Virus record (IMG/VR): IMGVR_UViG_3300021511_000005 | Location: 45,479-109,478 of that record | Direction: 5' to 3' (one strand) | Source of the DNA: a virus | Length of the DNA: 64,000 bases | Shown here: in pieces, positions 18,444 through 33,194 of the stretch | Position numbering within the stretch: the first letter of the stretch is position 1 | Layout: each line of letters starts with the position of its first letter | Notes under the pieces: generated by a model | What the model saw: only the letters and a program-made list of their open reading frames with translations | What the model was told of the DNA's origin: nothing | Database searches by the model: none | Program-made: the position numbers and the translations under genes

Positions 18444-19073
18444 GTGATGTGGAGCTGGATGAAGGCGAGTCCCTGGACCTTCGCTGTCGGTGGTTTGATT
18501 GCTGTTTTGGCGGTGGGTGGTGTTATCTACGCATTGGCGACTCACAAGAGGCGGATGGCCGCGCGGGACAAAGGGCTGATGATTCGTGATGGTCACCGAC
18601 TTCGCTGGAAGCGGGAGGACTTGCCCCTGGGGGTCTGGTTCCATCCGGGCCTTGCTGACGAGCTGCTGGAGGCCTGGAAGGGTGCCACGGCGTTGTTCGA
18701 GCAGGCCGTGGGGCGGCCGCTGTTCATGATCCCGCTGATGGCCCCTAATGACCTGGACCTGGACAAGCCGCCGCGGGGGAACGTGGTCCTGAAGACGACA
18801 GACCCCCAGGGCGATATGTCGAGCGACCATGGACGGACGGAGCACCGCTACGACAAGCGGGACGGTTACTTGATCAGCGCCATTGTGTCGTTGCCCTGGG
18901 TTCCGCGGACCGGGCTCCACCGGCATGTGGCGGTCCACGAGATTGGTCATGTCTTGGGTCTGGACCATGACGATGTGACGTCGTCCATCATGTTCCCAAC
19001 GTTGAGCTTGCGGAGGACGCCGGGGACGCTGTCCGATCTGGACGCGCAGAGGCTCAAGGATATCTATGGTTAA
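18444..19073 (+). CDS. membrane-anchored matrixin (M10-like metzincin) metallopeptidase
   Basis: N-terminal TM helix; HEIGHVLGLDH zinc motif; SSIMFP Met-turn; LSDLD. Confidence 0.85.
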   Translation: MMWSWMKASPWTFAVGGLIAVLAVGGVIYALATHKRRMAARDKGLMIRDGHRLRWKREDLPLGVWFHPGLADELLEAWKGATALFEQAVGRPLFMIPLMAPNDLDLDKPPRGNVVLKTTDPQGDMSSDHGRTEHRYDKRDGYLISAIVSLPWVPRTGLHRHVAVHEIGHVLGLDHDDVTSSIMFPTLSLRRTPGTLSDLDAQRLKDIYG

Positions 19074-19143
19074 GGTAGGGCCGGCCATCGAGTCGGAGGG
19101 TTGGCGCCCGGTGGTGGGGAAGGCGCCGCTATAAGGGGAGGGG

Positions 19144-19172
19144 TTGACAGGTAGCCGGGCCTAGGGCACCTT
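19144..19172 (+). promoter_or_regulatory. sigma70-like promoter TTGACA-N17-CACCTT
   Basis: Perfect -35, 17-bp spacer, xAxxxT -10, in an intergenic gap. Confidence 0.55.
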
Positions 19173-19178
19173 GGAGCC

Positions 19179-19265
19179 TGGCGGACCGAAGGCGTTGGGT
19201 TATCCAGTGAGCAACTGGCCCGGTCCATGAGGTCGGGCTTATCCAGCTCCATACCATGTTCGCCA
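19179..19265 (+). ncRNA. candidate structured RNA (multi-stem, tRNA-sized)
   Basis: TGGCGGAC/GTTCGCCA closing stem at predicted +1; internal hairpins CCAGT-GAGCA-ACTGG and CCCGGTC-CATGA-GGTCGGG. Confidence 0.3.
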
Positions 19266-19299
19266 TCACGAGGTCACATGCAAGGGACACCCTGGATCA

Positions 19300-19533
19300 A
19301 TGGAATCTCGCGTGGACAGCTCCCCGGCTGCGCTCGAGGCGCGGCGACTGAGGTCCGCTCTCCGGAAGACCAAGGTTTCGGAGGGGCCGGTCCTGATGGT
19401 GGTGACACCGCAGGAGCAGGCCGAGATCTGGGCGGAGCTGACTCCCAGGGAGAGGGAGAGGGTCACGCTCCTGACGAGCTGGCCGTGGAGCGCTCCCGCG
19501 TTGGCCAGCTCCCGGTTGTGCCGAGCCGCCTAG
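19300..19533 (+). CDS. hypothetical protein
   Basis: ORF downstream of the promoter. Confidence 0.4.
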   Translation: MESRVDSSPAALEARRLRSALRKTKVSEGPVLMVVTPQEQAEIWAELTPRERERVTLLTSWPWSAPALASSRLCRAA

Positions 19534-19568
19534 ATCTGCGGCTCAAGGACGCCCTGATCGGGTGATCC

Positions 19569-19895
19569 ATGCGCTGGTCAGGGTTGATTGTCGCGGTGGT
19601 GGCGCTGGTCCTGGCCTTCGTGGTGGCCGTTCTGGGGTCCTGCACGGCCCCCAATCCATCGCTTCAGGACTGGGAGGCCTGGGACGTCTACTGCTATCCG
19701 GACAGCTGTGTGGCGGTCTGGCGGGCTCAGGACGGCGGTTTGGGCGTGGACCGGCTTCTGCTGTGCGATGAGACCGGGTGCTACTGCATGGGCGGGGGGA
19801 GCCTGCGGACGCGCTGCTGCGACCGGCAGCCCTTCACCATGGAGGCCATGGAGTCCGTCTACCTCGGTGGGTGCTGCGCTACATTAGGCCCTTGA
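19569..19895 (+). CDS. Cys-rich putative lipoprotein
   Basis: Signal-like hydrophobic stretch ending LGSC (lipobox-like); many Cys; stop lies within element E1. Confidence 0.55.
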   Translation: MRWSGLIVAVVALVLAFVVAVLGSCTAPNPSLQDWEAWDVYCYPDSCVAVWRAQDGGLGVDRLLLCDETGCYCMGGGSLRTRCCDRQPFTMEAMESVYLGGCCATLGP

Positions 19896-19953
19896 CTTAC
19901 TCCGCACTGCGGTCACCATCCTATTGTCTTCGGACAACAAGGAGGCTCACATG
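19889..19953 (+). promoter_or_regulatory. cassette-leader element E1 (promoter/operator/hairpin/RBS repeat)
   Basis: CCCTTGACT TACTCCGCACTGCGGT CACCAT CCTATT GTCTTCGGAC AACAA GGAGGCTCAC ATG. Confidence 0.85.
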
Positions 19954-20832
19954 GCGACCAAGCAGCTCTCTCTTCTTCCCAAGTTGGCCCTGGCGGCTGC
20001 GATGTCTAGCGAGTTGAACAAGGCCAAGCGGGACGAGACCATTCCCGACCTGCAGAGCTACGATATCATTCTGGTCAACACCAGCGCGGGCAAGGACAGC
20101 CAGGCGATGCTGGACCTGGTGGTGGAGCACGCCAAGGCGGCCGGCGTCCTGGACCGGGTAATCACGGTCCACGCGGACCTGGGTCGGATGGAGTGGGCGG
20201 GGACTGGCGAGCTGGCCCGCGAGCAGGCTGAGCACTACGGGCTCCGTCTCGAGGTCGTGAAGCGTCCCCAGGGCGATTTGCTGACCCAGGTGGAGGACCG
20301 GGGTATGTGGCCGGGCCATACCACGCGCTACTGCACCAGCGACCAGAAGCGGGGTCAGGTCTACCGCGCGATGACCGCCTTGGTCCGCGAGCTGGGTCTG
20401 AAGCGCCGGGCGCGGATCCTCAACTGCCTGGGCCTCCGCGCGGAAGAGAGTCCTAACCGTGCCAAGCTCGAGCCTCTGAAGGCGGACAAGAAGGCCAGCA
20501 ACAAGACTAAGCGTGAGGTGGACACCTGGCTGCCCATTCACGACTGGACGGTGGAGCAGGTCTGGGCACGTATCAAGCAGAGCGGCGTCCGCCACCACCG
20601 GGCCTACGATTTGGGGATGCCCCGGCTCAGCTGCGTGTTCTGTATCTTCGCGCCCAAGGCGGCCCTGGTGCTCGCCGGCAAGCACAATCAGGAGCTGTTG
20701 GACGAGTGTGCGGGGATCGAGAAGCGGATTGGCCACACCTTCCGCCAGGATCTGACGCTGGCGGAGGTCAAGGAAGCGGTGGAGGCCGGCGAGGGCGGGG
20801 CCGTCGAGGACATCGACAGCTGGTGCTGCTAG
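19951..20832 (+). CDS. PAPS-reductase-family (PP-loop) protein 1
   Basis: TSAGKDS, RYCTSDQKRG, GLRAEESPNRA, LPIHDWT, RLSCVFCI; start set at the repeat RBS. Confidence 0.88.
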   Translation: MATKQLSLLPKLALAAAMSSELNKAKRDETIPDLQSYDIILVNTSAGKDSQAMLDLVVEHAKAAGVLDRVITVHADLGRMEWAGTGELAREQAEHYGLRLEVVKRPQGDLLTQVEDRGMWPGHTTRYCTSDQKRGQVYRAMTALVRELGLKRRARILNCLGLRAEESPNRAKLEPLKADKKASNKTKREVDTWLPIHDWTVEQVWARIKQSGVRHHRAYDLGMPRLSCVFCIFAPKAALVLAGKHNQELLDECAGIEKRIGHTFRQDLTLAEVKEAVEAGEGGAVEDIDSWCC

Positions 20833-20844
20833 GAAGCGATTAGA

Positions 20845-20913
20845 CCCTTGACATGCTCCGCGCTGGGGTCAGCATATAGGGGTCCTCGGACACAACTCAC
20901 GGAGGCTCACATG
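20845..20913 (+). promoter_or_regulatory. cassette-leader element E2
   Basis: CCCTTGACA TGCTCCGCGCTGGGGT CAGCAT ATAGGG GTCCTCGGAC ACAACTCAC GGAGGCTCAC ATG. Confidence 0.85.
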
Positions 20914-21870
20914 ACGACTCAGACCTTGTTCGACTTTGCCCGCCCCAGCCGGCCCACCAGCACCTTCACCGATAGTGACCAGCTGACGGTCGTGGACCTG
21001 TGTTGCGGCGCCGGGATGGCCTCCTTGGGCTTCAAGGCGGCCGGCGGCTACGACATCCTGGGCGGCGTGGACATCTGGGACGACGCGGTGGAGGCCTTCT
21101 GTCTCAACCACGGCAATGACTACGACTTCTTCCAGGACGCGGGCTGGCTGGGCGTCGAGGGCGCAGCGGCTGGCCGTCAGGAGCATTCCGACGGTTGGAC
21201 GGTGGACGTGGTCTTGACCGGTCCGCCCTGCCAGGACGACAGCCTGGCCAACCACGCCGCGGACAAGGGTCGTGGCGCCATCAAGGCTCCGGCGCTGGCC
21301 GCGGCGCGGGCGATGGGGGCCACCTGGATCATCATGGAGATGGTCACGAGCAAGTACGCTGACTGGTGCCGCAGCCAGGGTGCCCGTCAGATCCTGAAAC
21401 TCCAGGACTGCAAGCTGGGCGGCTTCACCATGCGGACCCGCTGGTTCGCCGTCTGGGGTCCCTGGGACCTGGTCATCACGGAAGAGCAGGGACGCGGCTG
21501 GGGTGAGGCTCTGGGTGTGGACGACCCCGACGCCCGTCTGGCGACCGAGAGTAACAGCAAGGCCAAGCGTTGGCAGCGGGCCAAGGCTCCCCACGAGGCC
21601 GCGGATGCCTGCGTGGGCGGCGACCGGCGCCACGTCATCCGCTTGGGTAACGGCGAGGAGATCCGGTTGGGACCCCAGGACGAGGCCGCGTTGGCCGGTT
21701 TCCCCAACTTGGAGCTGCAGCGGTCCGAGCACATGTGCAACGGGGAGCGTGAGTGGACGTGGACTCAGGGCGCCCAGAACGAGCGGGACGCCAACACCAT
21801 GGTCGGCAACGGCTGGCCCATGAGCTTCGGGCGCGCCATCGGGCGGGCCATCACAAGGAGGAGCCGATGA
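20911..21870 (+). CDS. DNA (cytosine-5) methyltransferase
   Basis: Motif I DLCCGAGMASLGF, catalytic GPPCQ, motif VI variant EMV, motif VIII RTRWF, motif X MVGNG. Confidence 0.85.
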   Translation: MTTQTLFDFARPSRPTSTFTDSDQLTVVDLCCGAGMASLGFKAAGGYDILGGVDIWDDAVEAFCLNHGNDYDFFQDAGWLGVEGAAAGRQEHSDGWTVDVVLTGPPCQDDSLANHAADKGRGAIKAPALAAARAMGATWIIMEMVTSKYADWCRSQGARQILKLQDCKLGGFTMRTRWFAVWGPWDLVITEEQGRGWGEALGVDDPDARLATESNSKAKRWQRAKAPHEAADACVGGDRRHVIRLGNGEEIRLGPQDEAALAGFPNLELQRSEHMCNGEREWTWTQGAQNERDANTMVGNGWPMSFGRAIGRAITRRSR

Positions 21871-22040
21871 CCGAGAGGGAGAAGAAGCTTCAATCGATTA
21901 GGGCCGTGGCGCAGAATCTTCGAGGTGTGGCGTCGTCGGAAGAGACAACCGACGAGTACGCCATTTGGCTTCGACGTCAGGCCGCGGTCTTGGAGTCCTC
22001 GGTTCGATTTCTGGCCTCACAGCGCGAAACGAGGGAGTAG
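21867..22040 (+). CDS. hypothetical protein
   Basis: AGGAGGAG RBS, ATGA overlap. Confidence 0.5.
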   Translation: MTEREKKLQSIRAVAQNLRGVASSEETTDEYAIWLRRQAAVLESSVRFLASQRETRE

Positions 22041-22376
22041 ATGGCCGGCAAGGATAGCCACGGGGCAAGCGCGGCCCGGCGCGCCAAGGCGGACGCCAAG
22101 GACAAAGCCCGGCGCTTGAAGGCGCGCGGGACCTGGACGCCGCGGAAGCCGGAACAGTTGGAGCTGCCGCTGGACCGGATCGCGCTGGAGGAGGGCGTGA
22201 TCTACCATCCGTGCGAGACCGGGATGGAGCCCTGCGAGGCTTGTACCGAGTGGGCCAAGACCGCGGAGCGCGACGAGTGGGGGTACTTCATAGGTCCCAG
22301 TCCCTGCGACCTGGTTCGGCGCCGGCGGCTGGAGGCTTTTACTGCGGAACACAAGACCCGAGGAATCACACTATGA
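22041..22376 (+). CDS. hypothetical protein with QLELPL motif
   Basis: GGGAG RBS; Cys cluster. Confidence 0.55.
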   Translation: MAGKDSHGASAARRAKADAKDKARRLKARGTWTPRKPEQLELPLDRIALEEGVIYHPCETGMEPCEACTEWAKTAERDEWGYFIGPSPCDLVRRRRLEAFTAEHKTRGITL

Positions 22377-22693
22377 CTGACGAACAGATAGAAGCCCGAG
22401 CTTGGGCGTTGATCAACGAGGGGCCGCTGTTTCTGGCGAAGCAGATCGTCCGGATGGATGAGGCCCTGGTGGGTCTGATTGAGCGTGTGGACCGGCTCGA
22501 AGAGAATCAGGTTGTCCTGGATGTGGATGACATCGAGGGCCGCCTGGGAGCGGTTGAGGCGTCCTCCGAGCGATTCGAGGATCTGCAGCTCCTGGCCTTC
22601 ACCGAGACCACCGCGGACCAGTTGGAGAGCCTGGAGGGTCGCCTGGATCGCTTGGAGGAGCGGGTTCCAGACCCGGAGCTGCGGACACCATGA
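22373..22693 (+). CDS. coiled-coil hypothetical protein
   Basis: ATGA-coupled; RLxxLE repeats. Confidence 0.55.
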   Translation: MTDEQIEARAWALINEGPLFLAKQIVRMDEALVGLIERVDRLEENQVVLDVDDIEGRLGAVEASSERFEDLQLLAFTETTADQLESLEGRLDRLEERVPDPELRTP

Positions 22694-23436
22694 CCGCGTT
22701 CGCGAGGGGCTCCGATCTGATTGCCAAGTCTCTGGACGTGCCCGGGGTTCGGGATGCCCGGGTCTATGAGTCTGAGCCTGGGAAGGTGGATTTGGTGGTC
22801 TGGACGTATCCCGAGTATGTCTACCCTGGCCGTGATTCGGAAGTGATCCTGGACGAAGTCCGCAGGCAAGTATCGGGGATGATACCGATGGGAGTCTTGA
22901 TCAAGGTGATCAAGGGGGAGGACATCCCGATCCAGCTCAAGAGGGCGATGATTGGCCTCCAGGGCAACGCGGCGGTGGCTATGCCTATCCTCGATTGGGT
23001 TACTGCAGATGACTTCGCTGCGGGCCTCCTGGAGTGTGAGGACCAGGTCTTCGGGAGGAGCGGGAACTGCAATTGTCAGCTGTCATGGTTCTGGTGCGCG
23101 GCCCGCTGCGCCCAAGGATCTCCACGGGCCCGGCGCTGGCTGGGGGTGGATCTGGAGCGGTCACCGGAGAGCTACTGGCAGGATCGCCACGTCTGTCAGG
23201 CGCTGAAGAGTCCCGCGATAGAGGATATCTTTGTTCATGATATCTTTCTGGAGGCCGCTGGTTACGCACCCATCCTGAAGGTTCTCCGGATGGCCTACGC
23301 CGGCGAGGGGCTGATCCTGGATCGGGGAGTGAGCGGGGAATGGTGGGAGCTGGTCGGACTCCGCCACCAGGCCCAGCGTCGTGTTATCCTGGAGGCCGTG
23401 TGGGGCGGTGAGGAAGACGAGTCGGACTCCCCGTGA
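22690..23436 (+). CDS. hypothetical protein, N-terminal half resembling a baseplate-J C-terminal domain
   Basis: VPGVRDARVYESEPGKVDLVV...ILDEVRRQVSGMIPMGVLIKV. Confidence 0.5.
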   Translation: MTAFARGSDLIAKSLDVPGVRDARVYESEPGKVDLVVWTYPEYVYPGRDSEVILDEVRRQVSGMIPMGVLIKVIKGEDIPIQLKRAMIGLQGNAAVAMPILDWVTADDFAAGLLECEDQVFGRSGNCNCQLSWFWCAARCAQGSPRARRWLGVDLERSPESYWQDRHVCQALKSPAIEDIFVHDIFLEAAGYAPILKVLRMAYAGEGLILDRGVSGEWWELVGLRHQAQRRVILEAVWGGEEDESDSP

Positions 23437-23438
23437 CC

Positions 23439-23505
23439 CCCTTGACATACTCCGCATAGCGGTCAACATACAGGGGTCCTCGAGACAACTCCGGAGGCTC
23501 CGATG
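23439..23505 (+). promoter_or_regulatory. cassette-leader element E3
   Basis: CCCTTGACA TACTCCGCATAGCGGT CAACAT ACAGGG GTCCTCGAGAC AACTCC GGAGGCTCCG ATG. Confidence 0.85.
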
Positions 23506-24597
23506 ACCCAGACAGCTCTGAACGTAGACCGGATTGTGACCCTCAACTGCGGCCTGGGGCGTGATTCCATCGCGATGACGGGGCTGCTGGAAGAGGGCGA
23601 GCTGGTGGTGGCGGAGCGGGTTTGGTGTTGCCGGGATTGTGGAGCTGAGATCCCCATGGTGGAGGAGCTAGCCCCGATCTGTGATTGTACCGACCCCGAC
23701 GGTTGGTGTGTTCCCGCCATGATCCAGTTGACCACCAAGATCGGCCGCCAGGACGTGGACTACGTGGTCTTTTCGGATGTTGGTCACGAGTGGGAGCATA
23801 CCTACAAGCTGATCCCGACCATCCGCGAGAAGTGCGCGGCGATGGGCGTCCGCTTCTTCGTACTGGCCAAGGGCAACGGTCGGAGCTACCCCGCGAAGCC
23901 CTCCACCTGGGCCGAGGTTGAGGCCAAGGCCGCCGCGGGCGGTTATCACGTTAGCAACAAGGGTCAGGCCCTCCCGGCCCTCATGGATGAGATGTTGTCC
24001 CGGTCCACGGTGGTCAACTTCCGCGGACAATGCACGGACAAGCACAAGATCTCCCCGATGCGCCGGCTCATCGAGGATGTGGCCCGGATCCGCTTCGGCG
24101 TTCGTGACAACCGCCGCTGGGGTCACGAGGTCCGCAAGGGTCAGCGCCGTCCCCATCTGGCAATGGTGGGTATCGCCGCGGATGAGACTCCCCGCATCAA
24201 CAAGGCCGCCCAGGCTGCGGGTGTGAGCTACGTGGACGAGACCTATCCGCTGGTCACCATGGGGATCGCCAAGACGGACGAGCAGCCTATCCTGGAGCGT
24301 CACGGTCTGGGGCACGTCCGGAAGTCTGGCTGCTACCTTTGCCCCTTCCAGCCGGCGAGCTGGTACTGGGCTTTGAGCGTGACCGATGAGGTCGCCTACC
24401 AGATGGTGGTGAGCTACGAAGCTCAGGCCCTCCAGAACAATCCCAACATGCACGCCACGGCTGCCAAGAAGACCATCCCCGAGATGGTGAAGACTTGGCG
24501 AGCTGCCAACCCGAAGGCCACCGTGGGCGCTGTTCTGGCCAAGACTTACGAGATGTGCCCCGCCGCGGCTCGAACGGCCCAGCGGGTGGCGGCTTGA
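23503..24597 (+). CDS. PAPS-reductase-like (PP-loop) protein 2, divergent subfamily
   Basis: CGLGRDS, VVFSDVGHEWEHTY, CTDKHKISP, VGIAADE, YPLV..GI, KSGCYLCPF. Confidence 0.75.
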   Translation: MTQTALNVDRIVTLNCGLGRDSIAMTGLLEEGELVVAERVWCCRDCGAEIPMVEELAPICDCTDPDGWCVPAMIQLTTKIGRQDVDYVVFSDVGHEWEHTYKLIPTIREKCAAMGVRFFVLAKGNGRSYPAKPSTWAEVEAKAAAGGYHVSNKGQALPALMDEMLSRSTVVNFRGQCTDKHKISPMRRLIEDVARIRFGVRDNRRWGHEVRKGQRRPHLAMVGIAADETPRINKAAQAAGVSYVDETYPLVTMGIAKTDEQPILERHGLGHVRKSGCYLCPFQPASWYWALSVTDEVAYQMVVSYEAQALQNNPNMHATAAKKTIPEMVKTWRAANPKATVGAVLAKTYEMCPAAARTAQRVAA

Positions 24598-24659
24598 CAT
24601 ATTCCGCAGTGCGGTCAATATCTAGAGGTCCTCGCGACACTGACCAGGAGGCTCTGATG
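24593..24659 (+). promoter_or_regulatory. cassette-leader element E4
   Basis: CTTGACA TATTCCGCAGTGCGGT CAATAT CTAGAG GTCCTCGCGAC ACTGACCA GGAGGCTCTG ATG. Confidence 0.85.
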
Positions 24660-24998
24660 GCTCGATTGACCCAACCCCCCAAGAACCAGGCCTACGCGCA
24701 AATCACTGAGGCCATCGGTACACGCGGCCGGTGGAACCTGTTGGGCTACGCTCGCGTGTCTCTGCTCAGTCCAACTGATCGGGAGGAGATTACGGTTCGT
24801 GTTCAGGCGAGCGCTTGCGAGGTCCCGGTGGGCCACAAGCGGCAACTCAGGCGATGCGACCTGTTCATTACGCCGGAGGAGATCGAGTGGCTCGAGCGGC
24901 AGATCGCCTATACCCAGAGCCATGATGGGAAGGCCCCGCATCCGGGCGAGCGACCGGATTGGCCCAAGGCCGGGGACCAGCTCGGGCTGGGCGTGTGA
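24657..24998 (+). CDS. hypothetical protein (first gene of cassette E4)
   Basis: Start set by the repeat RBS; ends DQLGLGV. Confidence 0.65.
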   Translation: MARLTQPPKNQAYAQITEAIGTRGRWNLLGYARVSLLSPTDREEITVRVQASACEVPVGHKRQLRRCDLFITPEEIEWLERQIAYTQSHDGKAPHPGERPDWPKAGDQLGLGV

Positions 24999-25058
24999 CA
25001 ATCGGCAGGGGCGCGGAATAGGATCAACAGGGGCTTTGGCCCCAGGGAGGCACCGATG
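24995..25058 (+). promoter_or_regulatory. degenerate cassette-leader element E5
   Basis: GTGACA...GCGG...TAGGAT, hairpin GGGGC-TTTG-GCCCC, GGAGGCACCG ATG; its TGA again ends the upstream gene. Confidence 0.4.
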
Positions 25059-25322
25059 GCGGGATCACCCAACCTGAAGGTCTACGCAGGCCGCGAGTAT
25101 GTGGCGAGCTGCAAGCATATCGAGGACGCGGTGGTGATTGCGGCCGTCCGCGGCGAGGGCACCACCATCCGCTACGGGCACGGCAAGGCTGCGATCCTGT
25201 GGACGGAGGGGGCGGAGGGCCAGTCCGCTAGCGAGAGTTACGACCACGCGACGGCCGTGGTGGTCTCGCGGATGGAGGCCCACTTCGCGCTGCTGGCGCG
25301 CAGGCGGAAGGCCCGCGGCTGA
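25056..25322 (+). CDS. hypothetical protein
   Basis: GGAGG RBS. Confidence 0.6.
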   Translation: MAGSPNLKVYAGREYVASCKHIEDAVVIAAVRGEGTTIRYGHGKAAILWTEGAEGQSASESYDHATAVVVSRMEAHFALLARRRKARG

Positions 25323-25484
25323 TGTCCAACCCGGACCGTAACCGGATTGAGCTGCCTGGGGTAATTCTTCAACTGGGCAAGCCACGGTTGACAGCCCGGG
25401 GACGGGTCATGGTGATCCCGGCGCTGCTCTACCCGGAGCGGCCGGTTAACTTCATCAACACGACGATCACACTCGGAGGCGGAG

Positions 25485-25907
25485 ATGCCCCTGTTGGACG
25501 ACAAGGACCGGGCGACGTTGGCCTGGCTGAAGGAGGCGAAGATGACGAGGGACGGAAGGTACAACACGACGCCGGCGGTGGACCGCAAGGCGGCCAAGCT
25601 CCGGGCGGAGGGGTTGAGCTTCCGCAAGATCGCGGAGGCTCTGGGGGTCAGTGACAAGACGGCCAAGCAGGCCGCGGAGCGTGGCGCTAACGGTCGTCAG
25701 CTGGACGCCGAGAAGGCCAGGGGCCAGGAACTGCGGAAGCTCCTGAAGGACCGCTGGCGGAGGCTGACGGACCCGGAGATGGAGGCAATGGAGCGGCGGA
25801 TGGCCGGCGATACCCAGGACGCGATCGGCGCCAAGCTGGGCATCAGCAAGCAGCGGGTGGCCCAGCTCCAGGCCCAGGCGGAGAAGAAGCTTCGGGAGGA
25901 ACGATGA
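25485..25907 (+). CDS. double helix-turn-helix (sigma70 region-4-like) DNA-binding protein
   Basis: GLSFRKIAEALGVSDKTA and GDTQDAIGAKLGISKQRVAQLQAQAEKKLR. Confidence 0.75.
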   Translation: MPLLDDKDRATLAWLKEAKMTRDGRYNTTPAVDRKAAKLRAEGLSFRKIAEALGVSDKTAKQAAERGANGRQLDAEKARGQELRKLLKDRWRRLTDPEMEAMERRMAGDTQDAIGAKLGISKQRVAQLQAQAEKKLREER

Positions 25908-26275
25908 CGACGGCCGAGCGACTCAGGAAGATCTTGACGAGGCACCGTTACAGGTCCTTTGACTACTCCAACGACTTCAAGATCAAGGCGACAGACGCCC
26001 TGCTGGACAAGCTGGTGGCGGAGCTGCTGGAGGTCGTGGAGGATCAGGAGAAGAAGGTTCACGCGGCATACGCGCCTGACGTGGCCGCTTCCTTCGACAA
26101 GGTCAATCAGAGTGATTTCGTTATCGGGCTGGTCCGCAAGGTCCGCAAATGTAATGCCTGCGGTTGTTCTAAGTGGGAACCCTACGTTCCGCTGGGGCGG
26201 TTCGGGGCGGACGGGCTCGTCTGCGCGGGCTGTGGTAACGCTATCGAGAATAGCACCATGATGGAGGAGCCCTGA
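25904..26275 (+). CDS. hypothetical protein with C-terminal zinc ribbon
   Basis: CNACG...CAGCG. Confidence 0.55.
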   Translation: MTTAERLRKILTRHRYRSFDYSNDFKIKATDALLDKLVAELLEVVEDQEKKVHAAYAPDVAASFDKVNQSDFVIGLVRKVRKCNACGCSKWEPYVPLGRFGADGLVCAGCGNAIENSTMMEEP

Positions 26276-27432
26276 TGGGCCAAGATAGACTTACCGAGGG
26301 CGGCCGGAGCATTGTGTGGAAGGCCGTGATGGACAGTTTGAACGCTCACCGGCGCCAGGGGATGGTCTTCAAGACCAAGCTGTTCTTGAAGTTCGAGCGC
26401 TGGGGCGTGGGGGTGGAGGATCTGTGGGAGCCCGGGATGCCCGACAAGCCTGGGATTCCGGAGGAGACGATCCAGGCCTTCGTTGCGGACATCGCCGCGG
26501 ACGTCTGCAAGCGTGTGGAGGAGGCGCTGGACCGCATCGACCCTAGGCCAGGGCCCAACCAGGAGATCATCTGCCAGAGCTGCGGTCAGGAGTTCGTGAC
26601 CACGGTGGGTGGAGCTTGCCCGAGCTGCGGACACAAGTGGGACGGGACAACGCCGGCGACAAAGGACCTGTCCGCGGCAGACCGGGCGAAGCGGGCCTGG
26701 GGCGAAGTCCAGATTGGCGGACCTGGTGACGTGGTGGAGCCGCCGGCGATAACCGACGCCATAGAGCGCTGGAAGGCGGATCCGGAGCCCAGCATGGACG
26801 AGACGTGGACGGAGGCCGAGAGGATCTCGTGGACGGAGGCCGAGAGGATCTCCTGGGAAGCAGTGGAGCGGTTGGAGGGGAGCGGCCACACCCCCCATTG
26901 CGCGCGGAGGATGATCTGGGGAGATGGGGAGTGCGAATGCCAGCTGCCGAAGGCGAAGGCCTCCGCGATCACCTGCACCTGCCACCTGATGGACCCGGGG
27001 AAGCTCTGTGCCGTCTGCTTGGAGGACATGAATCGCCAGCTCCAGGAGACCTACCAGCCGGCCTTCCCGGACACGCAAAGTCGGATCGACGAGCTGCGGG
27101 GAGCGCTCGAGGCCGGCGCACGGTTGGCGGAGGAAGAGCCCCTTCCGGTGATGGACGACCCGATGGGTCCCGTATCGCAGGCCCCGCGACACGGGACACG
27201 ACCAGGCCGGCCCCCGCGGAGCTACAAGGAGATGGCCCGAGATGAGCGAGAGGCTGCAGAGAGAGACGCTAGGGTTCTGCATGAATTGTGGGGATCCGCT
27301 GGTCCCAAGGGACCTAGAGCTGGCGGTGGTGCAGCTCCGGAAGACGATCCTCAATCAGCTGAGGAGCGTGGGCTGGACGCCGGGCTGGAGGACCGCGGAC
27401 AACCTGGCCCGGACGATCCTGTCGGGGATTGA
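26275..27432 (+). CDS. multi-zinc-finger hypothetical protein
   Basis: CQSCG...CPSCG, HTPHCA...CEC, CTC...CAVC; contains a 24-bp tandem repeat. Confidence 0.6.
   Translation: MGQDRLTEGGRSIVWKAVMDSLNAHRRQGMVFKTKLFLKFERWGVGVEDLWEPGMPDKPGIPEETIQAFVADIAADVCKRVEEALDRIDPRPGPNQEIICQSCGQEFVTTVGGACPSCGHKWDGTTPATKDLSAADRAKRAWGEVQIGGPGDVVEPPAITDAIERWKADPEPSMDETWTEAERISWTEAERISWEAVERLEGSGHTPHCARRMIWGDGECECQLPKAKASAITCTCHLMDPGKLCAVCLEDMNRQLQETYQPAFPDTQSRIDELRGALEAGARLAEEEPLPVMDDPMGPVSQAPRHGTRPGRPPRSYKEMARDEREAAERDARVLHELWGSAGPKGPRAGGGAAPEDDPQSAEERGLDAGLEDRGQPGPDDPVGD
26806..26853 (+). repeat. 24-bp tandem duplication (WTEAERIS x2)
   Basis: tggacggaggccgagaggatctcS twice. Confidence 0.9.
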
Positions 27433-27475
27433 GGATTACGGGCGAGAGGAGCCTCCACCGAATTCTGACCCTTGA
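27242..27475 (+). CDS. hypothetical protein (overlaps tail of upstream ORF)
   Basis: FCMNCG; stop lies within element E6. Confidence 0.45.
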   Translation: MSERLQRETLGFCMNCGDPLVPRDLELAVVQLRKTILNQLRSVGWTPGWRTADNLARTILSGIEDYGREEPPPNSDP

Positions 27476-27537
27476 CATGCTCCGCGGCGCGGTCATCATC
27501 TCGGTTGTCTTCGGACGCTACCTTGGAGGCTCGAATG
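27469..27537 (+). promoter_or_regulatory. cassette-leader element E6
   Basis: CCCTTGACA TGCTCCGCGGCGCGGT CATCAT CTCGGTT GTCTTCGGAC GCTACCTT GGAGGCTCGA ATG. Confidence 0.85.
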
Positions 27538-27831
27538 TTCAGCAGCTACGACAACTGGAAGACCACGGACCCCCGCGACTCTGAGCGGGAGGTTGGGATG
27601 GTGGATTGCCCCGACTGTCAAGGCGAGGGCCATGGTTGCGACGAGGACGGCCCCTGGTACTGCCCGACCTGCAGCGGCGAGGGTTGGCTGTGGGAGGAAG
27701 TCCTGGAGGTCATGGAAGCGGAGGAGGAGCTGGACGCGGGTTGTCCGCGCTGTGGTGGCCTTCTCTGCAACTGCGTCAACATCGAGGCCAGTATAGAAGC
27801 CATGATGGCCGGAAAGGAAGAAGCTGCCTGA
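27535..27831 (+). CDS. DnaJ-type CxxCxGxG zinc-finger small protein
   Basis: YDNWKTTDP; CPDCQGEG, CPTCSGEG, CPRCGG. Confidence 0.7.
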   Translation: MFSSYDNWKTTDPRDSEREVGMVDCPDCQGEGHGCDEDGPWYCPTCSGEGWLWEEVLEVMEAEEELDAGCPRCGGLLCNCVNIEASIEAMMAGKEEAA

Positions 27832-28202
27832 TGGACCGCACCGATCCCCGACACGTCGCCCACGAGCTGACCCCCCTGGAGCGTGTTCTCCAGACCATGT
27901 CCTACCACACCGGCCTGGTGATGACCGAGCCGGCCCCCAGCACCTTGAAGATGGGGCTGTCCCACGAAGACGTCTTGGTCTTGGTGGAGATCACCATCCA
28001 GCCCAGCTCCTGCGGCCCGCAGGAGGACAGCCCCCTGGGTCCCAACGTCATGGACCAGTGTTGCATCAAGGTCGAGGGGGAGGCGAAGGGCTCCTGGGTT
28101 GGGAACCGCTGTGGTGCCCGTCAGGCCCTGGCAGCGCTATACGCTCCGGTCATCGCGGCCGCAGCCGCGATGGAGTCCGAGACCGAGAGGAATGCGGCTT
28201 GA
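27831..28202 (+). CDS. hypothetical protein
   Basis: TGATG coupling. Confidence 0.55.
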   Translation: MDRTDPRHVAHELTPLERVLQTMSYHTGLVMTEPAPSTLKMGLSHEDVLVLVEITIQPSSCGPQEDSPLGPNVMDQCCIKVEGEAKGSWVGNRCGARQALAALYAPVIAAAAAMESETERNAA

Positions 28203-28381
28203 TGGATCGGGATCAGTGGAAGAGGCGCGTGGTGTCCAAGCGGGAGGCCAGGATCGCCAAGTTGGTCCGTGCTCATGGTTTCACGCGCGTATCGGATCGG
28301 AAGGTCCGCTGTCCTCATTGCGGCGCGGAGCTGACCTATAATCTGGTGCGACGTGTCCATTTGACCGGGAGGTGTGTCTGA
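28202..28381 (+). CDS. small zinc-finger protein
   Basis: CPHCG...H...C; TGATG coupling. Confidence 0.5.
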   Translation: MDRDQWKRRVVSKREARIAKLVRAHGFTRVSDRKVRCPHCGAELTYNLVRRVHLTGRCV

Positions 28382-29130
28382 TGGCCAAGCCGAAACAATA
28401 CCGCTGGGTCTGTCCTCAGTGTGGGGCCGGCAAGCTGGCGCCGAGCAGGCCGCGGAAGGACGACGTCCGCCGCTACTGCCTACCCTGCAGCGAGCGGACG
28501 GGGCGGTTGGTGGAGAGACTGTCTCCGGCGCTGGAGCGCCAGCGTCGGGAGAAGGAGGAGCGCCGGCGGAGCAGGGACAAGCGCAAGCGGGCGGCCAAGA
28601 CCCGGGCGAGGGCTCGCAATCGCGAAGCCCGGGCGGAGTGGATCGTGGAGCGGGAGATCGCTTTGGGCTTTGCCCAGGACGGCGGGAAAGACTCCATCCA
28701 CGGTTGGTTCCGCAGGCTCCGGAAGCTGAAGGCCTGGGGCTGCAAGATGAGCCACTGCAGCCTCCGGGTCCGTTACAGCGACACGGACCGTCACGCGCAT
28801 CCCTGGACCAGCGGACACGCCTGGCTGGAGGAGGGCGAGATCGTGATCACGGCCGCCAAGCCCAGGGCGGGTTACCCGACGTTGCGGCAGAAGGCGGAGG
28901 TGATCCAGACTCTGCTCCACGAGCTGGCCCATCCCGCAGCCTTTGGGCGTTTCGGACACGAGGGGACTAACCACGGCCCGGAGTTCAAGCGGACACTGCT
29001 CGAGGCCGCGGAGGAGCTGACCGGTCGGGTAGCGGATGTGACCGTAGAGCACGCGACTTATGACGTGGACCAAGAGGTTGTGGATATGCTTCACCTGTGG
29101 CTGATGGAAGAGGACGCCGATGGCTGCTGA
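28381..29130 (+). CDS. SprT-like metalloprotease with N-terminal zinc finger
   Basis: CPQCG...CLPC; TLLHELAH...HGPEFK. Confidence 0.75.
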   Translation: MAKPKQYRWVCPQCGAGKLAPSRPRKDDVRRYCLPCSERTGRLVERLSPALERQRREKEERRRSRDKRKRAAKTRARARNREARAEWIVEREIALGFAQDGGKDSIHGWFRRLRKLKAWGCKMSHCSLRVRYSDTDRHAHPWTSGHAWLEEGEIVITAAKPRAGYPTLRQKAEVIQTLLHELAHPAAFGRFGHEGTNHGPEFKRTLLEAAEELTGRVADVTVEHATYDVDQEVVDMLHLWLMEEDADGC

Positions 29131-29767
29131 CCTAACACGGGGACAGGTGATGGACGCCCTGGAGCAGCTCATATGGGGTGGGACCGCTTCGTGGCTGGGG
29201 GAGGACCTGGCCCACGCGATGGCCATCTTTGAGGGCACCGGGCGGATCAGCGAGCGCTTGATGGAGGTGGTCCAAGATCACGTCCAGGTCCGAGAGGTTG
29301 AGCGCTTGGAGCAACAGGTGGCTCAGACTGCCCTTCGGGAGACCGCATTGGAGGCTATGAAGAAGAAGGGGCGGAAGGTTCACTGGCGGATCGCGGGTCA
29401 GCGCAAGACGGCTTGCGGGTTGGTCCTCAATCCTCAGCGCGAGCCCTACAACGCGCCGGCGGCCGATTACGATCCGGAGAAGGTCACCTGCAAGAGTTGC
29501 CTGGGATCCAGTGGGCTCCGGGAGCTGCGGTCCAAGTGGCCGCCGGTTCGTGTGTTGTCTGCGAGCTTCAGTTTGGAGGGGCCACCGGAGGGCAGGACTC
29601 GGGTCTTCAGTTATCGGCGCCGGATGACCCCGGAGGAAGTGGCGGTGGTGACGACACTTCTGGAGGAGCGAGTCCCCAGTCTACTGGAGGAGCCGGATCC
29701 CAAGATTGTCACAGCCTATCGCGCGGCCAAGGCGGCCGCGGAGAGGAGGGACGCCGATGGCAGCTAA
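29120..29767 (+). CDS. hypothetical protein with zinc finger
   Basis: VH...TACG...VTCKSC. Confidence 0.6.
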   Translation: MAADLTRGQVMDALEQLIWGGTASWLGEDLAHAMAIFEGTGRISERLMEVVQDHVQVREVERLEQQVAQTALRETALEAMKKKGRKVHWRIAGQRKTACGLVLNPQREPYNAPAADYDPEKVTCKSCLGSSGLRELRSKWPPVRVLSASFSLEGPPEGRTRVFSYRRRMTPEEVAVVTTLLEERVPSLLEEPDPKIVTAYRAAKAAAERRDADGS

Positions 29768-29948
29768 GGTCTACATGTTGGAGCTGGAGAACGGGACCTA
29801 TGTCTACCTGTGTCCCCAGCACCTGAAGGATTGGCGGGTGGCTGGCGGCAAGGAGAAGGCCAAGGTGGCCACCGGCCGCGACTGCGATCACTGCGCGGCT
29901 GGCGGTGGGCCGGGCAGCTCCTGGAGCGTGCGCGATGATGACGCCTAA
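29757..29948 (+). CDS. small zinc-binding protein
   Basis: LCPQH...CDHC; GGAGG RBS. Confidence 0.45.
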   Translation: MAAKVYMLELENGTYVYLCPQHLKDWRVAGGKEKAKVATGRDCDHCAAGGGPGSSWSVRDDDA

Positions 29949-30588
29949 GCGGTTGCTCCGGAACCTGCGGGACGCCAAGGCGGCCCGCAACAAGTTGGTC
30001 AAGGTCTGGCGCCACAAGGTCCAGCTCCCCGAGGGGGCGAAGGTCCAGTGTCGGGGTAAGGGTTGCGTGGGCTGCTGTTACCAATTCGTCCTGGCGGGCA
30101 TCTGGGAGGGCGCGTTGATCGCTCACTATCTGCTGCACACGGAGGGCTCCCACGAGCTGATTCAGGAGTGCGCGCGGGCCGGGGACGAGCAGCTCGAGCG
30201 TGTTGGGCCCGAGTACACCCCGGACGCGATCAACGCGGTCACGGGGCCCTGGTTGGACGAGAGACACCCCTGCGTCTTCCTGAAGGATGGGGTCTGCGAG
30301 ATTTATGCTCTGCGGCCTATCGCGTGCTCGAGCTACGTTGTCATCAGCGATCCGGAGGTCTGCGCCGCGGGGAGCGGGGCGGAGGTTTGCGCCGGCGACA
30401 ACGCGAGCTGTTTGGCCTGGAGGCTTGAGGTGGACCGGCGGCTCGTTTCGGAGCTGCTGAGCATCAAGCGGGACGACGTGGTGGTGATGCCCTTGCCGCT
30501 GCCCCGGGCGGTGACTCTGGGCTCTCAGCTCCTGCTGGAGGGGCCAGAGGCGCTTCGTGGGATTGTCCTGGGCGAATCGAACCCTTGA
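29935..30588 (+). CDS. YkgJ/FliB-family Cys-cluster protein 2
   Basis: CRGKGCVGCC...CVFLKDGVCEIYALRPIACSSY; stop lies within element E7. Confidence 0.8.
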   Translation: MMTPKRLLRNLRDAKAARNKLVKVWRHKVQLPEGAKVQCRGKGCVGCCYQFVLAGIWEGALIAHYLLHTEGSHELIQECARAGDEQLERVGPEYTPDAINAVTGPWLDERHPCVFLKDGVCEIYALRPIACSSYVVISDPEVCAAGSGAEVCAGDNASCLAWRLEVDRRLVSELLSIKRDDVVVMPLPLPRAVTLGSQLLLEGPEALRGIVLGESNP

Positions 30589-30650
30589 CATAGTCCGCAT
30601 CGTGGTCACCATATGCTCGTCTTCGGACGCAACCTCAGGAGGCTCCAATG
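30582..30650 (+). promoter_or_regulatory. cassette-leader element E7
   Basis: CCCTTGACA TAGTCCGCATCGTGGT CACCAT ATGCTC GTCTTCGGAC GCAACCTCA GGAGGCTCCA ATG. Confidence 0.85.
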
Positions 30651-30956
30651 ACTAAAGTGGTGTTTGAGCGGATGGAGACGGATCCCCAGGACGGGACCAC
30701 GACTTGGGAGATCCGGTTGGAGACCGGGGGCGTGACCGAGGTGGTGGGCTCCATCCACAAGGATACGGTGTGGTGCGGCGATGGCTACCGGGCGGATACC
30801 TATCATGTCGAGGTGGACCGGGATCAGTGGGACGATTCGCGGGAGAAGACGTTCCAGGTCTGCAATATTTGGAGCCGCGGTCGTGGAACGTCGGCGCGGA
30901 CTGCGATGGCCGAGGCGAAGGCCTGGGCACGCGAACAGCTCAAGGAGGGCCTCTAG
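30648..30956 (+). CDS. hypothetical protein (first gene of cassette E7)
   Basis: Repeat RBS; ends MAEAKAWA. Confidence 0.7.
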   Translation: MTKVVFERMETDPQDGTTTWEIRLETGGVTEVVGSIHKDTVWCGDGYRADTYHVEVDRDQWDDSREKTFQVCNIWSRGRGTSARTAMAEAKAWAREQLKEGL

Positions 30957-31198
30957 TGGCTCGCAACTCAGACGGCACGTTTGCCAGCAAGCAGCACCTG
31001 GATCGCTTCGACCATCAGCGGCAGCTCCAGATGAAGCTCCGCGAGGTCTTGACCACCGCCGCGGACAAGTTGGATCCCCAGGACGCGCTGTGGGGTGTCA
31101 AGGTGATGCGGGAGCGGCCGGACTGGGCCGTCCCAGTGATCGAGCGTATCGAGGCCGAGCTGGCCGTTGACCGTCTAACTGGAGGCTGCAATGGTTGA
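30956..31198 (+). CDS. hypothetical protein
   Basis: AGGAGG RBS; GTG start; RNSDGTFA. Confidence 0.55.
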   Translation: MARNSDGTFASKQHLDRFDHQRQLQMKLREVLTTAADKLDPQDALWGVKVMRERPDWAVPVIERIEAELAVDRLTGGCNG

Positions 31199-31544
31199 TC
31201 TGTTCCTGGCCCTTCTCTCCATCCCCTTCGTTCTCCGCCCGCGGGAGGACGACTGTTGCCGGTGGGACGTCTACGCAGGCCCCATGCTCGTGGCGATCGT
31301 GGAGTACGTCCACAGCGCCAAGGGGGAGTGGATGTGGAGTCCTCCGTGTTCCGGGTTCCGTTATCCCTGTCCCTGGGACTCTTCCCGGGGGACCTGGGCG
31401 GACTCCTATCCGGACCGCCACGAGGAGGCGCTGATGGCGGAGATCCGGCGCTTCATCGAGATCCACAACGTCGAGCATCACCAGGCCTACCTGCTTGCCA
31501 TGATGACCGGGGAGCGGCGCTTGCTCGAGCTGGAGGGAGAGTAG
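31191..31544 (+). CDS. hypothetical protein
   Basis: GGAGG RBS. Confidence 0.55.
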   Translation: MVDLFLALLSIPFVLRPREDDCCRWDVYAGPMLVAIVEYVHSAKGEWMWSPPCSGFRYPCPWDSSRGTWADSYPDRHEEALMAEIRRFIEIHNVEHHQAYLLAMMTGERRLLELEGE

Positions 31545-31546
31545 CC

Positions 31547-31798
31547 ATGGACAAACGATCGGCCCCTACTCTGTACTTCAGCTCCAAGACCGGCAAGTGG
31601 GGCACCACGCCGATCGAGGGTGCTCCCACCTGGCAGCACAGCTCCATGATGGTCTATGAGGCCTGGTTGCGGAGCCAGGACCGTCGGCGGCGCTACGCGG
31701 CCCAGAGAGCCGCGGACCGTCGGCGGACCAAGGCCCAGTCCAAGTACATCGTCGAGCGGTGCCTGATGGCACTCCTGGCTCACTGGGAGCGGTCATGA
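31547..31798 (+). CDS. hypothetical protein
   Basis: GGAGGGAG RBS. Confidence 0.5.
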   Translation: MDKRSAPTLYFSSKTGKWGTTPIEGAPTWQHSSMMVYEAWLRSQDRRRRYAAQRAADRRRTKAQSKYIVERCLMALLAHWERS

Positions 31799-32085
31799 GG
31801 CGGCGCGCGGGTGAGGACCAAGAGGATACACGTCGGCGGTTGACCTGGCGCATTGAACAGCTGGCGGAGGTGGGCTGGATCCCGGTGGGCTGGGATGATG
31901 TCCGCGGGAAGTTGGCGCCTAAGTCTCCGGCGGAGAGCCATAGGGTCCGCTGTCCCCATTGTGAAGTGACCTTTGACCACAGCAGCGGGACGGCCCGGGA
32001 GAAGCACTTGATCAAGAAACATGGTTACAGTCGCCTGGACGGTTTCTACCGGGCTCATGGGATGGACTGCTTCGAAGAGCCTTGA
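31795..32085 (+). CDS. C2H2-type zinc-finger protein
   Basis: CPHCEVTF...HLIKKH; stop lies within element E8. Confidence 0.55.
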   Translation: MRRRAGEDQEDTRRRLTWRIEQLAEVGWIPVGWDDVRGKLAPKSPAESHRVRCPHCEVTFDHSSGTAREKHLIKKHGYSRLDGFYRAHGMDCFEEP

Positions 32086-32153
32086 CATACTCCGCAGCGG
32101 GGTCATCATATCGGTTGTCAGGGCTTCGGCCCACAACCCAGGAGGCTCCGATG
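32080..32153 (+). promoter_or_regulatory. cassette-leader element E8
   Basis: CCTTGACA TACTCCGCAGCGGGGT CATCAT ATC GGTTGT CA GGGC TTCG GCCC ACAACC CA GGAGGCTCCG ATG (extended UUCG hairpin). Confidence 0.85.
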
Positions 32154-32381
32154 ACCAAGACCGTTACGAAGGAACGCAAGGATGGCCGGGACCTGGCCAA
32201 GCTTCTCCGCTCCAATTTCGGCTCCTACGAGCTGGTTCAGAATGTCCTGACCGCACAGTGCGCCGGCTGTCGCGAGATGGCTCAGGGGATGTTGGACGAG
32301 CTGACTGTGGACGAGCTGGACGAATTGGACGCCCAGATCGAGCTGATTCAGACTCAGATGGCTCAGCAGGCGCAGGAGTAG
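32151..32381 (+). CDS. small acidic helical protein (first gene of cassette E8)
   Basis: Start set by the repeat RBS. Confidence 0.65.
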   Translation: MTKTVTKERKDGRDLAKLLRSNFGSYELVQNVLTAQCAGCREMAQGMLDELTVDELDELDAQIELIQTQMAQQAQE

Positions 32382-32384
32382 GCG

Positions 32385-33194
32385 ATGCACCAGCTCCGCC
32401 TTGCCATCGAGCCCCTGGACGACACCCGGCCCATTCCGACCTGCCAGGATGGAACCGGGCCCATCTGCCCCTGGTGCGGGGAGGAGCGTTTCCTGGATGT
32501 CCTGGAGTACTGGCCGGAGGAGCGGGCGTGGATGTTCGATACCTGCTGTGAGGGCTCCCATCAGGATGCCTGTGAGCACGCCGCCCAGGACCCCCGGGGC
32601 TTCGGTCGTTGGTTTGAGGGCGTGACTGGTTGCTACGTCCGTCAGGGTTACCAGAGTACGGTGGAGCCCGACTTTCTCCGCCTGGACTTCGGTTTGACCG
32701 TGGGGCCGGTGAAGCAGGCGGACGCCAAGGCCTTCATCAGCGAGCATCACCGCCACAACAACGCACCGGCCGGCTGGAAGTGGGGTTTGGGCTGCTACAA
32801 CGGCCACGAGCTAATCGCAGTCCTGTGGGTCGGTCGTCCGGTGGCGCGGAAGCTGGACCACACCAAGATCGTCGAGGTCAACCGCTTGTGTGTGAATCCC
32901 GACCTGGACCCGGAGCTGGTGTGGAACGCTTGCTCGAAGCTCTACGCTGAGGCGGCCCGGGAGGCCAAGACTCGGCGCTACGACAGGGCCATCACCTACA
33001 CCCTGGCGAGCGAGTCCGGCGGGACCCTGGTGGCTGCGGGCTGGACCCCGACGCACCGCACCGAGGGAGGAAGCTGGGATCGCCCGAGCCGAGCCCGCAC
33101 CGACAAGGCCCCGACTTGCCAGAAGATCCGTTGGGAGAAGGGTTGCAACAAGCGCGCCCGTAAGGACATCGCCAAGCGGGCCATCACCCTGTAA
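32385..33194 (+). CDS. Mom-like / XF1762-family GNAT adenine-modification protein with N-terminal Cys domain
   Basis: AKAFISEHHRH, GRPVARKLD, VEVNRLC, NACSKLY, ITYTLASESGGTLVAAGW, GGSWDRPSRAR. Confidence 0.8.
   Translation: MHQLRLAIEPLDDTRPIPTCQDGTGPICPWCGEERFLDVLEYWPEERAWMFDTCCEGSHQDACEHAAQDPRGFGRWFEGVTGCYVRQGYQSTVEPDFLRLDFGLTVGPVKQADAKAFISEHHRHNNAPAGWKWGLGCYNGHELIAVLWVGRPVARKLDHTKIVEVNRLCVNPDLDPELVWNACSKLYAEAAREAKTRRYDRAITYTLASESGGTLVAAGWTPTHRTEGGSWDRPSRARTDKAPTCQKIRWEKGCNKRARKDIAKRAITL

Follow-up and report, generated by a model that had tools for sequence, protein, structure and literature searches.

Why does one phage carry the same short element seven times over, each time immediately before a start codon? 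The question is raised by a 64,000-nucleotide stretch of viral DNA, here called the window, which comprises bases 45479-109478 of a 109,478-bp IMG/VR viral contig (IMGVR_UViG_3300021511_000005) estimated to be 97% complete. All seven copies lie within 12 kb, in an array just upstream of the terminase gene (36176), and each occupies a gap of 55-78 bp directly before an ATG. Based on their architecture, their conservation in related phages and the genes that they precede, we propose that the repeats are probably promoters for the host primary sigma factor, joined to a standard leader and serving a hypervariable accessory region.

Seven copies of one composite element

Three scans recover exactly the seven copies, at the same positions, that a preliminary description of the locus had listed. 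The fixed-length pattern TTGAC-N4-TCCGC-N5-GGTCA-N2-AT matches the window with 0 mismatches at 19892, 20848, 23442, 24594, 27472, 30585 and 32082, always on the plus strand, where 0.18 matches are expected by chance. Allowing up to 3 mismatches adds no site, and the whole 109,478-bp contig holds the same seven copies and no others. In a position weight matrix (PWM) scan the copies score 46-54 bits; the next plus-strand site reaches 4.5 bits and the best minus-strand site 6.3. A sequence profile built from 11 copies, namely the seven of the window, one on a related contig (L120) and three on another (L131), gives the window copies E values of 1e-16 to 1e-18, and a search of this genome and two relatives with the same profile finds nothing besides the known copies at E<=1.

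Each copy is assembled from the same parts in the same order: a C followed by TTGACA; a 16-bp spacer containing the invariant TCCGC, a G and GG; TCA-NN-AT; 5-7 variable bases; a hairpin; a linker; and finally GGAGGCTC-N2-ATG. The spacer measures 16 bp in all seven copies, and TCCGC and GGTCA are both present in seven of seven, as had been claimed. Conservation is block-wise, with invariant blocks alternating with positions that are nearly randomised among the window copies. The -35 is TTGACA in six copies and TTGACT in one, a perfect or near-perfect primary-sigma hexamer, and every copy has a -10 of the form CANNAT, A-11 and T-7 included. These are the marks of a primary-sigma promoter, which has a -35 near TTGACA, a spacer within 16-18 bp and, in the -10, A in second and T in sixth place. 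TCCGC, T-13 and C-12 are invariant in all 11 copies, the C at -12 being off consensus. These bases are unexplained by known sigma contacts, which argues for a specific factor; most likely, we infer, they label these promoters for a factor of the phage that switches all of them together. Earlier the spacer had been described as a CCGC-N3-GCGG dyad and as an operator. The left half of the dyad, TCCGC, is indeed invariant and could serve as such a site, but the full dyad is perfect in only four of the seven window copies, and a covarying palindrome or hairpin in the spacer was rejected because its covariation is not significant.

Downstream of the -10 the copies share a leader that opens with a hairpin of 3-5 bp, carrying a YUCG(N) loop and located near the expected +1, and continues into a C/A-rich linker. 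In the four-pair stem 88.6% of cells across the 11 copies are paired, and all four pairs show changes on both sides, that is, compensatory changes. The covariation score of the stem is 0.76 against 0.27 in shuffles, none of 500 of which reaches 0.76, and pairing collapses when the partners are slid. Because the loop begins 9-11 nt past the -10 in 10 of the 11 copies (the loop anchors of the copies at 27472 and 30585 were re-read by eye), the stem starts approximately at the expected +1. The loop is cUUCGg in four window copies (19892, 27472, 30585 and 32082), the number originally reported, and in 7 of 11 overall; this loop is asymmetric and always lies on the sense strand, and an RNA-level role is therefore indicated. 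The copy at 32082 extends the stem around the same UUCG loop, again as first described. By their make-up, with stems of 3-5 bp and no U tract, the hairpins are not terminators. Terminator-like sites between 17000 and 36500 number 7, with 7.6 expected by chance, and an Rfam covariance-model search of 19000-33000 gave no match at E<=1. The leader closes with a fixed ribosome-binding block: GGAGGCTC-N2-ATG is found at all seven repeat starts and at no other start in the genome, where plain GGAGG precedes 56 of the 117 called genes.

The elements are fitted tightly against the genes in front of them. In five of the seven copies the preceding open reading frame (ORF) stops at a TGA inside the -35 (19893, 24595, 27473, 30586 and 32083), so that the gap consists of the element only and there is no room for a terminator between units. 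As a signal in its own right the overlapping stop (binomial p ~0.045 for the window copies) was rejected, since adding the copies of the relatives brings it to only 6 of 11; we read it as compaction.

Relatives and a proposed mode of action

The window has a G+C content of 62-69% and a GC skew that is positive throughout, and all its convincing genes lie on the plus strand. Megablast of the region against 50,697 deposited phages gave no match, and the terminase, compared with cultured phages by tblastn, reaches 24-31% identity over 52-76% of the query, so the host is not readable from relatives. Judged by these comparisons, this is an uncultured high-GC phage lineage without cultured relatives. 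A metagenome scan for the element (at least 116 contigs) showed the full element, among the matches listed, only on L120 (one copy) and L131 (three copies), both short contigs from one assembly. Pattern scans of IMG/VR gave, among the matches listed, only single chance matches in coding DNA, and a scan of GTDB representative genomes gave 18 chance-type matches and no true element.

The proteins of L120 are 42-47% identical to three proteins of the window, of 140 aa (containing a sigma-70 region-4 domain), 77 aa and 215 aa. Despite this distance the L120 and L131 copies keep the -35, TCCGC, GTCA, the UUCG loop and AGGAGGC, and block-wise conservation across phages so far apart points to selection on those bases and not to recent duplication. 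On L131 each copy heads its own single- or two-gene unit, and the genes have no homologue in the window phage; this fits modularity and proves nothing. The closest complete relative, G001 (IMGVR_UViG_3300036945_000814), has a terminase 50% identical to that of the window phage and replication and structural modules in the same order. It has nothing in common with window positions 2600-36000 except a 44-residue match within the SprT-like gene, and on this ground the array is taken to be a hypervariable accessory region. G001 has a reiterated promoter of its own, TTGACA-N17-18-TAnnAT, present in eight copies that share a conserved block upstream of the -35 and a conserved spacer unlike that of the window phage; this supports the view that phages of the lineage use host-type promoters, every one in a private version. 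Five of the eight copies have an ATG 6-7 nt past the -10, the spacing expected of leaderless mRNA; promoters of this type hint at an actinobacterial-type host.

How might the repeats work? In the explanation that we favour, each would be a complete expression signal. RNA polymerase of the host, with its primary sigma factor, would start transcription about 7 nt past the -10, a predicted start that coincides with the first base of the hairpin. The mRNA would begin with a 5'-terminal stem-loop, mostly capped by cUUCGg, that stabilises it; 5'-terminal stem-loops are known to slow 5'-end-dependent decay. Past the C/A-rich linker, the fixed GGAGGCTC-N2-ATG would ensure efficient translation. Since each element sits directly against the gene before it and the units have no terminators between them, transcription from the promoters would add up along the array, with each of these internal promoters boosting 1-7 genes of a 12-kb hypervariable block whose many DNA-modification genes are plausibly needed early. 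A phage-specific factor may then switch the whole set together via TCCGC and T-13/C-12. All seven elements have the appearance of a single set of promoters and leaders under common regulation, in which each member heads a unit of one to about seven genes, and to that extent the co-regulated immediate-early regulon of the preliminary description stands; the term 'immediate-early' draws only on the sigma-70-type consensus and the DNA-modification genes.

Several observations weigh against this explanation. Only 3-4 of the 6 positions of the -10 agree with TATAAT, position -12 is an invariant C, and a generic promoter scanner accepts only two of the seven sites. In the spacer the dyad is degenerate, and for two of its five pairs only 7 of 11 copies retain the pairing. 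The hairpins are weak, at -1.3 to -7.8 kcal/mol, and the stability of whole leaders does not exceed that of shuffled sequence (z -1.6 to +1.3). Finally, the phage encodes two sigma-region-4 proteins, and a phage factor, not host sigma alone, could be required.

Alternative explanations and a candidate regulator

The last of these points can be taken further. The promoters might depend on a phage sigma-like or sigma-appropriating protein, for instance the 140-aa region-4 protein or a 284-aa protein resembling extracytoplasmic function (ECF) sigma factors, and would then not be immediate-early; such a protein would recognise them by the weak -10 and the spacer box. This dependence would account for C-12, T-13 and TCCGC, which primary-sigma contacts leave unexplained in 11 of 11 copies, and the phage does encode two region-4 proteins. 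The 140-aa protein moreover accompanies the element in L120, whereas G001, which has a different promoter box, lacks it. However, this co-occurrence sets two lineages against one, the -35 hexamer is perfect for a primary sigma and correctly spaced, and a second motif family in the same genome is the better candidate for a phage sigma; we regard phage-factor dependence as unlikely.

That second family, TGACAATC-N8-10-CGCGGAA(G/T), has six plus-strand sites counting looser matches, which are found ahead of replication genes, within the array and ahead of the terminase block, several of them followed by hairpins. It is probably read by a phage sigma-like factor and may be the promoter class of the 284-aa ORF product (genome 35492-36346), which has an ECF-type region 4 (PF08281, E=1.3e-6). 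To this family also belongs a site at 24995 that had been taken for a degenerate eighth copy of the repeat. The site is not among the 25 best plus-strand PWM sites (down to -4.5 bits), the profile misses it at E<=1, and its upstream half fits TGACAATC-N8-10-CGCGGAA. Read in this way, it has the same layout of promoter, hairpin and Shine-Dalgarno (SD) sequence as the repeats and is of a different promoter class.

The gene for the 140-aa protein lies inside the array, behind this second-class and probably phage-sigma-dependent promoter (24996..25058). The C-terminal half of the protein can be aligned with solved structures of RpoD, SigA and RpoS, in each case with region 4 (best E 2e-6). Four homologues, 59-76% identical, occur in public assemblies on contigs of up to 20.8 kb; in L120 a homologue precedes the element by about 270 bp, G001 has none, and a search for related loci with an alignment of the protein gave only one weak match. 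The protein might bind the -35 on its own, or it might bind the flap tip, and that it reads the private box of the promoters is speculation. One can picture a 'sigma-4 decoy' timing circuit in which TCCGC and T-13/C-12 form a private address read by the 140-aa protein, all seven host-type promoters are switched off (or up) together once the phage sigma is made, and each lineage has its own box, as in G001. We offer this circuit as a long shot.

Could the repeats instead be mobile cassettes, similar to the promoter-early stem-loop (PeSL) cassettes of T4-type phages? They would then be mainly recombination sites for the excision of genes as mini-circles, for insertion and for swapping, and the promoter would ensure expression in a new context. 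The array region has no homologue in G001 though the flanking replication and structural modules are common to both phages, the three small units of L131 each combine a copy with genes that have no window homologue, and one replacement between L120 and the window starts right after an element; L120 has one unrelated gene after its element where the window has three or four. Yet only one of the four gene-content breakpoints between the window and L120, the only partly syntenic relative, abuts a repeat. L120 is without the 123-aa and 385-aa genes that in the window separate the region-4 and 77-aa genes, and no repeat stands at either junction of this indel. Compared in pairs, the copies are identical over stretches of at most 8-20 bp, and the search of the phage for a tyrosine integrase was negative. 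The idea, put forward in the preliminary description, that the repeats may act as recombination points is not supported by the comparison with L120, and we judge mobile cassettes to be distinctly improbable.

Two further alternatives concern the leader and the origin of the copies. The hairpin, or the fixed SD context, might be a protein-binding RNA site, either for a translational repressor or as an antitermination signal resembling nut/boxB. In lambda boxB sits just downstream of the promoter, and here too a hairpin comes just after every promoter; moreover, the loop and the bases after GGAGG are conserved beyond the requirements of 16S rRNA pairing. But the stem tolerates any change of sequence that is compensated, loops of the cUUCGg type mostly have a structural role, and a candidate RNA-binding protein was not identified; with terminator-like sites at chance level, there would also be little to antiterminate, and we think an RNA site of this kind very unlikely. 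It is hardly credible, in turn, that the repeats are neutral relics of a recent local duplication with no selected function beyond that of an ordinary promoter. The clustering of the copies within 12 kb is what such an origin would leave behind, but the positions between the blocks are nearly randomised, the blocks persist across phages at 42-47% protein identity, and this block-wise conservation disfavours it. The flanking genes, too, are mostly unrelated; they had been called unrelated throughout, and the exception is PAPS-reductase PHROG 424, which is matched by the leading gene of unit 1 as well as by that of unit 3.

Gene units, neighbouring features and known systems

The units headed by the repeats are listed in Table 1, together with the promoter-like sites discussed above. 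Most of the unit genes not assigned there match no family, and the match of the Mom-like protein to PF25680 is borderline, at 26.6 bits just below the cut-off of 27.1. DNA-modification-type genes are concentrated at 19951-24597 and 32385-33194, where two divergent PAPS-reductase-like genes, the C5 methylase and the borderline Mom-like gene are found, and this cluster suggests an unusual DNA modification pathway. The conserved 77-aa ORF (27242-27475) overlaps the 3' end of the 385-aa ORF (26275-27432) by about 190 bases in another frame, which reflects either a miscalled start or a frameshift.

Table 1. Repeat elements, the units that they head, and other promoter-like sites (window positions unless another genome is named)
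Feature	Position	Strand	Description
Unit 1 element	19890..19953	+	-35 at 19892, 16-bp spacer with TCCGC, -10 CACCAT, loop 19929-19932, GGAGGCTC, ATG 19951
Unit 1 gene	19951-20832	+	PAPS-reductase-like, Pfam PF01507 E=2.8e-16
Unit 2 element	20846..20913	+	-35 at 20848, ATG 20911
Unit 2 genes	to 23436	+	C5 DNA-methylase-like 20911-21870 (PF00145 E=6e-10) and 3-4 small genes
Unit 3 element	23440..23505	+	-35 at 23442, ATG 23503, 5-nt loop CUCGA
Unit 3 gene	from 23503	+	364-aa protein matching PAPS-reductase PHROG 424, E=2.4e-13
Unit 4 element	24592..24659	+	-35 at 24594, ATG 24657, 5-nt loop CUCGC
Unit 4 gene	from 24657	+	113-aa product, no assigned function
Unit 5 element	27470..27537	+	-35 at 27472, loop 27510-27513, ATG 27535
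Unit 5 genes	to 30588	+	98-aa Zn-finger protein, SprT-like (28381-29130), 215-aa protein, others
Unit 6 element	30583..30650	+	-35 at 30585, loop 30622-30625, ATG 30648
Unit 6 genes	to 32085	+	4-5 small genes, no assigned function
Unit 7 element	32080..32153	+	-35 at 32082, extended stem around GGGC/GCCC core, UUCG loop, ATG 32151
Unit 7 genes	towards terminase	+	76-aa gene, Mom-like protein (32385-33194), further genes
Non-member site (earlier 'degenerate copy' 24995)	24996..25058	+	Promoter-like site, 5-bp hairpin with UUUG loop, SD, ATG 25056
140-aa protein	25485-25907	+	N-terminal helix-turn-helix (HTH) and sigma-70 region-4 domain (C-terminal half); two HTH motifs, no region 2
Second-motif sites	window 10243, 11795, 24997, 35042; genome 30370, 36319 (outside window)	+	Motif scan
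G001 promoter copies	18983, 23615, 24593, 46630, 100302, 106600 (G001)	+	One further weaker copy
G001 promoter copy	6899 (G001)	-	Counted on the reverse-complement strand

Other features lie to either side of the array. Just upstream, the crude gene caller left a 322-base gap (19074-19395) that holds TTGACA and several G-rich runs, and before it is the gene for a 208-aa protein (18447-19073) with a matrixin-type zinc metallopeptidase motif (PF00413, E=2.8e-11). Between terminase and portal, 38682-47622 is taken up by two giant ORFs of 1573 and 1409 aa with ddrB-ParB, DUF5661 and TMEM65-like domains, the products of which may be virion cargo proteins. A tRNA search was negative.

How do the repeats compare with known systems? 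T7-type late units consist of a promoter, a 5' stem-loop at +1 and a strong SD, and are served by the phage's own single-subunit RNA polymerase from a 23-bp promoter. The predicted transcripts of the window units would likewise start with a hairpin and run into an optimised ribosome site, but their promoter is of the bacterial -35/-10 type. In the temperate actinophage phiC31, which has a defined repressor, highly similar early promoters and conserved inverted-repeat operators recur in intergenic gaps, much as the window elements do; unlike phiC31, however, the window phage has no identified integrase or repressor, and its dyad is weak.

The preliminary description had drawn parallels to the promoter/stem-loop cassettes of T4-type phages and to the start-associated repeats of mycobacteriophages, and each parallel holds in part. 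The PeSL cassettes of T4-type phages are reiterated strong sigma-70-like promoters with a stem-loop (Arbiol et al. 2010, PMC2839356; Comeau et al. 2014, PMC4122927). The window elements share their logic and genomic setting: both kinds fill short gaps, stand before genes that are mostly orphans, and cluster in a hyperplastic region. One PeSL subclass also has its stem-loop downstream of the -10. The PeSL stem-loops, however, are stable G/C-tract structures shown to terminate transcription, and indels and mini-circles have been demonstrated for them (PMC2839356, PMC4122927), whereas the short, weak stems of the window lack a U tract and do not qualify as terminators, and a role in recombination is not favoured. 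In addition, PeSLs have an AT-rich upstream region where the window elements have a gene ending in or next to the -35, and the window phage is of an unrelated high-GC lineage.

Start-associated sequences (SAS) and their extended form (ESAS) are known from Cluster K mycobacteriophages and Cluster EF Microbacterium phages (PMC3203893, PMC7302621), with a 13-bp GGGATAGGAGCCC in Cluster K. The likeness is one of design and not of sequence: an over-conserved motif at the position of the ribosome-binding site, 3-7 bp before mostly ATG starts, at non-structural genes in one orientation, often with an inverted repeat just upstream and with conservation beyond the part that pairs with 16S rRNA. The 13-bp consensus differs, the window phage does not fall into those clusters, SAS are not tied to a -35 and -10, and the ESAS inverted repeats are 17 bp long. 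Lytic actinobacteriophages have further repeated intergenic motifs, of 18 bp in Cluster EC and of 30 bp in Cluster EI, which also encodes a sigma factor (PMC7302621). Like the window elements these occur in 5-12 private copies, in short gaps 20-30 bp before mostly non-structural starts, and a regulatory role is suspected; their sequence is another one, and they have not been dissected into -35, -10, hairpin and SD.

What, then, do the repeats mean for the biology of these phages? They are a familiar kind of phage expression cassette, real, neatly organised and not surprising, and they open no new category. They provide a compact map of the likely first-wave transcription units in an uncultured 109-kb high-GC phage, and in the 70-bp unit they supply a candidate part for gene expression in high-GC hosts. 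Taken together, the stand-alone sigma region-4 protein and the private spacer box offer an idea of how early genes might be timed in such phages. With the seven repeats, this lineage joins the T4-like, Felix O1-like and T1-like phages in which the promoter-plus-leader design was already known.

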